Below, in pieces: positions 60,834-62,286 of a DNA stretch of 64,000 bases (its first letter is position 1; each line of letters starts with the position of its first letter). The DNA is taken from NCBI RefSeq assembly GCF_056746865.1, contig NZ_CM163382.1; one strand, given 5' to 3'. The notes under the pieces are model-generated. The model saw nothing but the letters and a program-made list of their open reading frames with translations. It was not told the DNA's origin and searched no databases. A program made the translations under genes and the position numbers.

Positions 60834-62227
60834 GCGGTACCCTCACGACGCGGTGCGCGTTTGCGTGGACGACGAGAACGGCGACGCGGTGACGGCTCTT
60901 CATCCAGCTCGTTGAGCATCCCTTTTTGATCTGGTGGCGCGGAAACCTGGAACTCCCCCCACCATTTCACAAGACGCTGCAGTTCAGCGTTACGTTCAAC
61001 TTCAGCTCGCAAGGCCAACAGGTCATAAGCAGCACGGAACTTAGGATGCTCCAGCAGTTTCCAGGCGCGTTTACCCTGACGTCGGGACATACGCAACTGC
61101 AACTGCCAGATATCGCGGGTTAACGTCGTCAGACGTTTCGGGATCGCCAGAGAACGGCAGGCTTCGTCCAGCACGTCGTTCATCGCCAGCGCGAAAGCGT
61201 CGTGATAGGTCAGGCCGCTTTCCTGGGCGATCTTCTGTGCCGTCTCCAGCAGTGGGTACCAGAACATGGCGGCAAACAGGAACGCCGGGTTCACGCGCAT
61301 ATCGTTATGGATACGCGTATCGGTATTCTTCAGCACCTGTTCAATGATCCGCTCCATCGGGCTGTCGCCATTTTCCGTGAAGTAGCGGGTAATGGTCGGG
61401 AACAGCGGCTGGAACAGGTGATATTCACACAGCAGATTATAGGTTTCGTAACCGTAGCCCGCTTGCAGCAGTTTCAAAGATTCTTCAAACAGACGTGCCG
61501 GTGGAATATCGTTCAGCAGGGTAGCGAGGCGAGGGATCGGTTCTGCGGTTTCAGGACTGATACGCATACCCAATTTGGCGGCAAAACGTACCGCGCGCAG
61601 CATCCGTACCGGATCTTCACGGTAGCGCGTTTCCGGGTTACCAATCAGACGGATAACGCCGTCTTTCAGATCCTTCATGCCGCCAACGTAATCACGGACG
61701 GTAAAATCCGCTACGCTGTAATACAGGCTGTTGATAGTGAAATCGCGGCGCTGGGCGTCTTCTTCGATGGAGCCGAAAATGTTGTCGCGCAGCAACATAC
61801 CGTTTTGCCCGCGTTGGGAGGTCGTGCGGTCGCTGACGTTACCTTCGTGATGTCCACGGAAGGTCGCAACTTCGATAATCTCCGGGCCAAACATCACATG
61901 AGCCAGACGGAAACGGCGACCCACCAGGCGGCAGTTACGGAACAGTTTACGTACCTGTTCAGGCGTGGCGTTAGTGGTTACGTCAAAATCTTTCGGCTTT
62001 TTGCCAAGTAACAGGTCGCGCACGCCGCCGCCAACCAGCCAGGCTTCGTATCCCGCTTTATTGAGCCTGTACATTACCTTCAGGGCATTTTCACTGATAT
62101 CTTTGCGGGAAATAGCATGCTGCTCACGCGGGATCACCGTCACCTGTGGACGGGCGACTGCCTGTTCAGCCTCGCTTTCCTCGCGGCTTAGCACCTTGCG
62201 GCAAAAATTAGCGACTCGGGTAAAAAT
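60830..62227 (-). CDS. pcnB: Poly(A) polymerase I PcnB (non-canonical AUU start)
   Basis: ORF track gives 472 aa; known 465-aa product begins (M)[11 protein letters not shown] at ATT codon 62225-62227; 4-nt overlap with folK. Confidence 0.88.
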
Positions 62228-62286
62228 AGTACACCTCGGTAGTGTCAAACATCATTCAGGACAAAAAAATAGCGGCTAATCATAGC

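Follow-up and report, generated by a model that had tools for sequence, protein, structure and literature searches.

There is very little doubt that pcnB, the gene of poly(A) polymerase I (PAP I), is translated from a non-canonical AUU codon in the DNA analysed here, a stretch of 64,000 nucleotides of contig NZ_CM163382.1 (assembly GCF_056746865.1) that we refer to as the window. This codon stands on the minus strand behind a good Shine-Dalgarno (SD) sequence, and its inefficient initiation would cap the synthesis of PAP I (Table 1). The finding is correct and is already known. Binns and Masters 2002 (Mol Microbiol 44:1287, PMID 12068810) are cited for both the AUU start and the translational limitation of PAP I, and the AUU start is given with reference to their work in PMC2939334, PMC3561954, PMC5499595, PMC4245954 and bioRxiv 10.1101/063800. 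The initial annotation of the window, which had presented the AUU codon as a documented case of translational down-tuning, is therefore in line with what these five papers attribute to Binns and Masters. Our own contribution concerns the anatomy of the start site, its annotation, its conservation and the onset of constraint, while the use of AUU and its limiting effect come from the literature. The position of the start is of some consequence, given that PAP I determines how far RNA is polyadenylated and how many copies of ColE1-type plasmids are kept, the AUU start being one among the brakes on its production. It matters likewise for annotation and engineering, with at least four N-termini in the public domain for one and the same allele and some recent papers still numbering PcnB from the wrong codon.

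Anatomy of the pcnB start site

Positions 62225..62248 belong to the 5' end of pcnB, a minus-strand gene, within a gluQ-pcnB-folK neighbourhood that is present in the window, in the RefSeq records and in the distant loci described below. In the ORF listing, the mechanical ORF of pcnB (60830..62248, minus strand) opens with a TTG and encodes 472 amino acids, as had been noted for the frame beginning at 62248, although the strand was left unstated. The eighth residue of this ORF is an isoleucine encoded by the ATT of Table 1, which reads aat on the plus strand at 62225-62227. Because an in-frame TGA closes the frame upstream, at 62254..62252, the TTG is the sole canonical in-frame codon upstream of the ATT. 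Altogether, four in-frame codons serve as the start of pcnB in public records, namely TTG (codon -7), ATT (codon 1), GTG (codon 12) and ATG (codon 52). By chance alone, an in-frame ATT is not an unlikely find within the opening eight codons of an ORF; it is the context of the codon that is non-random. Upstream of the gene, a promoter-like element overlapping the 3' end of gluQ came out of a consensus scan and is a candidate for pB, a promoter described in PMC2939334, where its position is given only in a figure.

Table 1. Features of the pcnB start region and of its surroundings in the window
Feature	Position	Strand	Basis
pcnB initiation codon ATT (AUU), predicted to be decoded as fMet	62225..62227	-	RefSeq CDS start, 81/81 conservation
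Shine-Dalgarno GAGGTG, 4 nt (TACT, 62231..62228) 5' of ATT	62232..62237	-	duplex energy, 81/81 invariance
pcnB CDS from ATT, 465 aa plus stop, poly(A) polymerase I	60830..62227	-	NF008634, RefSeq
Upstream in-frame TTG, start of the mechanical ORF, not the functional start	62246..62248	-	no SD, poor conservation
In-frame TGA closing the frame upstream	62252..62254	-	sequence
GTG codon 12 (Val), start in 454-aa annotations	62192..62194	-	-1.6 kcal/mol, no SD
ATG codon 52, start proposed by Liu & Parkinson (414-aa annotations), possible minor internal start	62072..62074	-	weak SD
pcnB codons 1-12, block almost invariant at synonymous sites	62192..62227	-	synonymous diversity
Promoter-like TTCTCA-17-TATGAT overlapping gluQ 3' end, candidate pB	62279..62307	-	consensus scan only
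ATGA overlap of pcnB stop and folK start	60830..60833	-	ORF listing, sequence

The four candidate starts were compared for the energy of the duplex formed with the 3' end of 16S rRNA (anti-SD). The GAGGTG in front of the ATT, separated from it by a 4-nt spacer, reaches -9.8 kcal/mol, against -2.3 kcal/mol for the TTG, -1.6 kcal/mol for GTG12 and -4.0 kcal/mol for ATG52, and among the four the ATT alone has an SD at functional spacing. As a background for these values, 5.7% of random 22-nt windows of the same sequence reach -9 kcal/mol and 3.1% reach -10 kcal/mol. Several papers, PMC3561954 and PMC9764084 among them, term the ribosome binding site of pcnB poor; by this simple duplex measure the SD is a good one, and it is the start codon that is weak.

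The locus is the one on which the published work was carried out. Primers Pr11, PS1.rev and PS2.rev of PMC2939334 map onto the window, which therefore carries the same locus as was studied there. The window comes from E. coli, a stretch of 501 nt being 100% identical to strain 118UI, and of 5424 complete E. coli genomes 5416 match the 71-nt initiation region at 99% identity or more. Compared with E. coli K-12 pcnB (b0143, NP_414685.4), we are dealing with the same gene in the same gluQ-pcnB-folK synteny and with a 71-nt initiation region that is 100% identical; the protein of the window differs at 2 of 465 residues (K264N, T451S), as an allelic variant of a non-K-12 strain, and the start site shows no relevant difference.

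N-termini in databases and curated families

The RefSeq CDS of pcnB measures 1398 nt, encodes 465 amino acids and starts at ATT in all five records examined (118UI, K-12 MG1655 b0143/NP_414685.4, O157:H7 PV15-279, HS and GPEC1405). The NCBIfam PcnB equivalog NF008634 scores 995.9 bits over the whole protein, against a cutoff of 702, and its positions 1-468, out of 469, are matched to residues 8-471 of the TTG ORF. Since position 1 of the profile falls on residue 8 of that ORF, the residue encoded by the ATT is where the curated family begins. The initial annotation had placed the start at the ATT of 62225-62227 and had proposed a comparison with the curated PcnB N-terminus. On that comparison, the RefSeq CDS and NF008634 both begin at the ATT residue, the onset of constraint described below falls on the same codon, and the N-terminal peptide that had been given as following the ATT proves right.

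It had also warned of a trap for automated ORF callers, and public protein collections bear this out: the identical K-12 allele has been deposited as proteins of 472, 465, 454 and 414 amino acids, of which the first three are each found on at least 1000 contigs, and PcnB lengths in Enterobacteriaceae clusters spread across 447-481 amino acids. The trap is real for uncurated gene callers, while curated pipelines (PGAP) already solve the start of pcnB.

N-terminal proteomics, which had been suggested as another check, would be a poor discriminator here, because PAP I is scarce (30-50 molecules per cell, PMC3561954), because cleavage of an N-terminal leader of 17 residues has been reported (in 473-aa numbering, PMC9764084) and because, to judge from the sequence, trypsin would leave only MFTR as the N-terminal peptide of AUU-started PcnB. 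Our literature search found no ribosome-profiling or N-terminomic datum for pcnB; the gene is not mentioned in the accessible part of the Ribo-RET preprint, nor is PcnB in the TRAINSPOTTER N-terminomics paper. The PDB structures 3AQK-3AQN are uninformative as to the start, because their constructs begin at Q28.

Conservation of the AUU codon in Enterobacteriaceae

The pcnB loci of 80 other Enterobacteriaceae species (species-representative genomes) were aligned with that of the window, and the resulting 81 sequences were anchored on the homologous codon. Codon 1 is ATT in 81/81, and the GAGGTG followed by four nucleotides is equally invariant. Across codons 2-13 there is no amino-acid change in any of the 81 sequences, the variation being exclusively synonymous and at third positions. 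On the other side of the ATT, codon -1 encodes five amino acids (T/I/P/A/N), codon -5 encodes six and codon -7 twelve, and in-frame stops are found at -5 to -8, that is, as close as codon -5, along with variation that a reading frame would not tolerate. As judged from this alignment, the coding constraint on pcnB begins exactly at the ATT, and such a switch argues against both the TTG and the GTG12 starts.

Were pcnB translated from the upstream UUG into a 472-aa protein, the ATT would be an ordinary internal isoleucine codon and should vary as other such codons do. PcnB has 14 invariant isoleucine columns, and codon 1 alone uses a single codon in all 81 sequences, unlike the 13 others. The UUG is, it is true, the first canonical codon past the in-frame stop, the 472-aa form stands on no fewer than 1000 contigs, and the literature itself wavers, PMC3561954 (2012) naming UUG when it introduces the gene and AUU when it comes to the discussion, and PMC9764084 (2022) using a 473-aa numbering. 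However, the UUG has no SD, a TTG or an ATG occupies its position (codon -7) in only 29 of the 81 species, and in 43 of them no ATG, GTG or TTG at all lies between the upstream stop and the ATT. The codons of the interval are not conserved as protein, as seen from the diversity at codons -1, -5 and -7, and the curated PcnB profile leaves out the 7 residues between UUG and ATT. We consider this reading highly improbable. Still less credit can be given to translation from the GTG at codon 12, which would yield the 454-aa protein of older annotations: this codon is invariant in 81/81 sequences, the 454-aa form is likewise on at least 1000 contigs and in Thorsellia PGAP chooses a GTG located 12 codons after the ATT, but GTG12 is devoid of an SD, the PcnB equivalog model covers the codons that precede it, and codons 2-11, which are free of amino-acid substitution in the 81 species, vary only synonymously and are therefore translated. 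On the comparative data, the UUG and GUG12 starts are effectively excluded.

The persistence of so weak a codon deserves attention. In none of the 81 sequences has the ATT become ATG, GTG or TTG, though one substitution would make the start canonical, and in the same genomes the start codon of the adjacent folK is ATG in 39 cases, GTG in 31 and TTG in 1. On the strength of these alignments, selection keeps the weak AUU codon in all of the 81 Enterobacteriaceae sequences and in some more distant Gammaproteobacteria.

An observation apart concerns Salmonella, in which Salmonella enterica subsp. diarizonae and arizonae have an in-frame ATG, and not TTG, at codon -7, without an obvious SD. Many Salmonella PcnB records are 472 amino acids long (P0027, 2921 members), and the 465-aa form is also present (P0056). 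Given the in-frame ATG at codon -7, an upstream start may be conceivable in this genus.

Homologues outside the Enterobacteriaceae

The same arrangement was met farther afield. GAGGTG-N4-ATT is found in Ca. Erwinia haradaeae, where the gene is annotated at the ATT, and also in a genome of 63% GC (CP043324). In Thorsellia kenyensis (JBHLXE010000108), GAGGTG-TATT-ATT is followed by LKRITQLYRSL; the RefSeq protein WP_385877851 of this species begins at a GTG lying 12 codons further downstream, and this annotated start probably lies too far downstream. Photobacterium aphoticum has GAGGTG-TATT-ATC, with an ATG that overlaps the SD four codons upstream, and Alishewanella has GAGGAG-AGTT-ATC-ATA-ATT at the homologous start position. 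One metagenomic homologue retains the N-terminal motif, and a canonical start is absent upstream of it. In homologues of about 50% identity the start is a GTG or an ATG preceded by an SD, and the N-terminus of V. cholerae PcnB is too diverged for its start to be placed. The second protein search yielded mostly partial proteins, and named Yersinia, Serratia and Proteus were absent from its sample. The pattern among distant homologues agrees with a phylogenetic remark that PMC3561954 credits to Binns and Masters.

Synonymous-site constraint around the start and an internal ATG

The constraint on the first codons of pcnB seems to go beyond the protein. Among the 455 windows of 11 codons that pcnB offers, synonymous diversity across the 81 sequences is lowest in the block of codons 1-12 (0.077; the mean is 0.389), and in 7 of the 12 columns of this block one codon alone is found, the background being 2.2% (P about 2e-9). 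These seven, which include the rare arginine codon CGA at codon 4, make up more than half of the 13 single-codon columns of pcnB, while such columns number 0/4 and 0/6 at the opening of folK and gluQ, respectively, over 12 codons each. The remainder of pcnB is free to vary, like the beginnings of these two neighbours. It is tempting, if somewhat doubtful, to regard the AUU start as one part of a larger constrained element that runs from the GAGGTG through codon 9-12 and would constitute an unrecognised cis-regulatory feature of PAP I. Candidate causes of the constraint could be the binding of S1, of Hfq or of some other factor, a need that AUU initiation itself imposes, or the internal promoter pS1.

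Two other candidates were set aside. RNAfold and RNAalifold propose a hairpin of the SD (CG-A-GGUG / UACC-CG) with the AUU in its loop, which is unsupported: it has 0 compensatory pairs, the 111-nt region around it folds less stably than shuffled sequences (z=+1.27), and both Thorsellia and Ca. Erwinia haradaeae lack the partners needed for its pairs. A search of Rfam with 61700..62700 returned zero family matches at E<=1. On the antisense strand, a mechanical ORF with a GTG start (61965..62279, plus strand, 104 aa) overlaps the 5' end of pcnB; it is without support, and is unlikely to be the cause of the constraint on codons 1-12 because synonymous diversity is normal in codons 13-34, which it overlaps as well.

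Synonymous diversity is also low over codons about 35-50, and a second, small patch of single-codon columns is found there at codons 41-43 (RKD; 62099-62107, minus strand), which may be connected with pS1, an internal sigma-S promoter known from the literature, or with a region of internal initiation. The patch lies about 30 nt upstream of ATG52, and bears in this way on the idea that, besides the product of the AUU start, a shorter secondary PAP I is made from ATG52 on sigma-S pS1 transcripts. The idea draws on PMC2939334, according to which pS1 is active downstream of the ATT, two bands are commonly seen with anti-PAP I and a putative SD precedes an AUG; a weak AAGG does stand upstream of ATG52. 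Yet in the same paper pS1 is active only in stationary phase when ppGpp is absent, and its authors themselves call the ATG52 isoform unproven. The 414-aa protein would, moreover, lose 51 N-terminal residues, so that we hold such an additional product to be unlikely.

Limitation of PAP I synthesis and other AUU-initiated genes

For the AUU start itself, the following sequence of events may be put forward. The GAGGUG with its 4-nt spacer would place the 30S subunit on the AUU, which initiator tRNA would read as fMet to give a PAP I of 465 amino acids. As a near-cognate start, AUU is expected to be discriminated against by IF3, and for this reason initiation on pcnB would be inefficient, at roughly 1-2% of AUG as gauged by reporter assays; such inefficiency would in turn cap the synthesis of PAP I, whose overproduction is toxic. 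The elements of this scheme are drawn from published work: PAP I is toxic on overexpression (PMC3561954), infC and pcnB alone among E. coli genes have an AUU start, and IF3 rejects non-canonical codons (PMC5499595). Hecht et al. recognise no confirmed non-canonical start in E. coli besides those of infC and pcnB, and measured initiation from AUA, AUC, AUU and CUG at 1-2% of that from AUG (bioRxiv 10.1101/063800). The IF3 dependence of pcnB is proposed by analogy with infC.

Like pcnB, infC starts at a non-canonical AUU, which has been conserved in phylogeny and restrains translation (PMC5499595), and the alternation of AUU and AUC in infC is paralleled among pcnB homologues, with ATC in Photobacterium. 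Unlike that of pcnB, the AUU of infC closes an autoregulatory loop, because its product, IF3, is itself the discriminator. We know of no role of PcnB in start-codon discrimination, and any sensitivity to IF3 would consequently couple PAP I to the level of IF3 and not to its own. A further parallel comes from ebpA of Enterococcus faecalis which, according to the abstract of PMC4447247, has a rare ATT start that attenuates expression and has been mis-annotated at a canonical codon. The likeness ends there, ebpA being unrelated in gene, organism and function, and its mis-annotated ATG lying 120 bp downstream according to the same text.

Neighbouring genes

The stop codon of pcnB and the start codon of folK overlap as ATGA, and for this reason there may be translational coupling of folK to pcnB, which is itself poorly initiated. 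Compared with K-12, FolK of the window differs at 11 of its last 18 residues (60354-60410, minus strand) and at one of its first 141, and the fimbrial gene downstream of folK is not the one found in K-12. From the sequence, this looks like a recombination boundary inside the 3' end of folK. On the other side of pcnB, gluQ has two annotated starts, an ATG at 63213 (minus strand, 308 aa), which is used in the K-12 RefSeq record and in the mechanical ORF, and in PGAP records an ATG 10 codons downstream at 63183 (minus strand, 298 aa).
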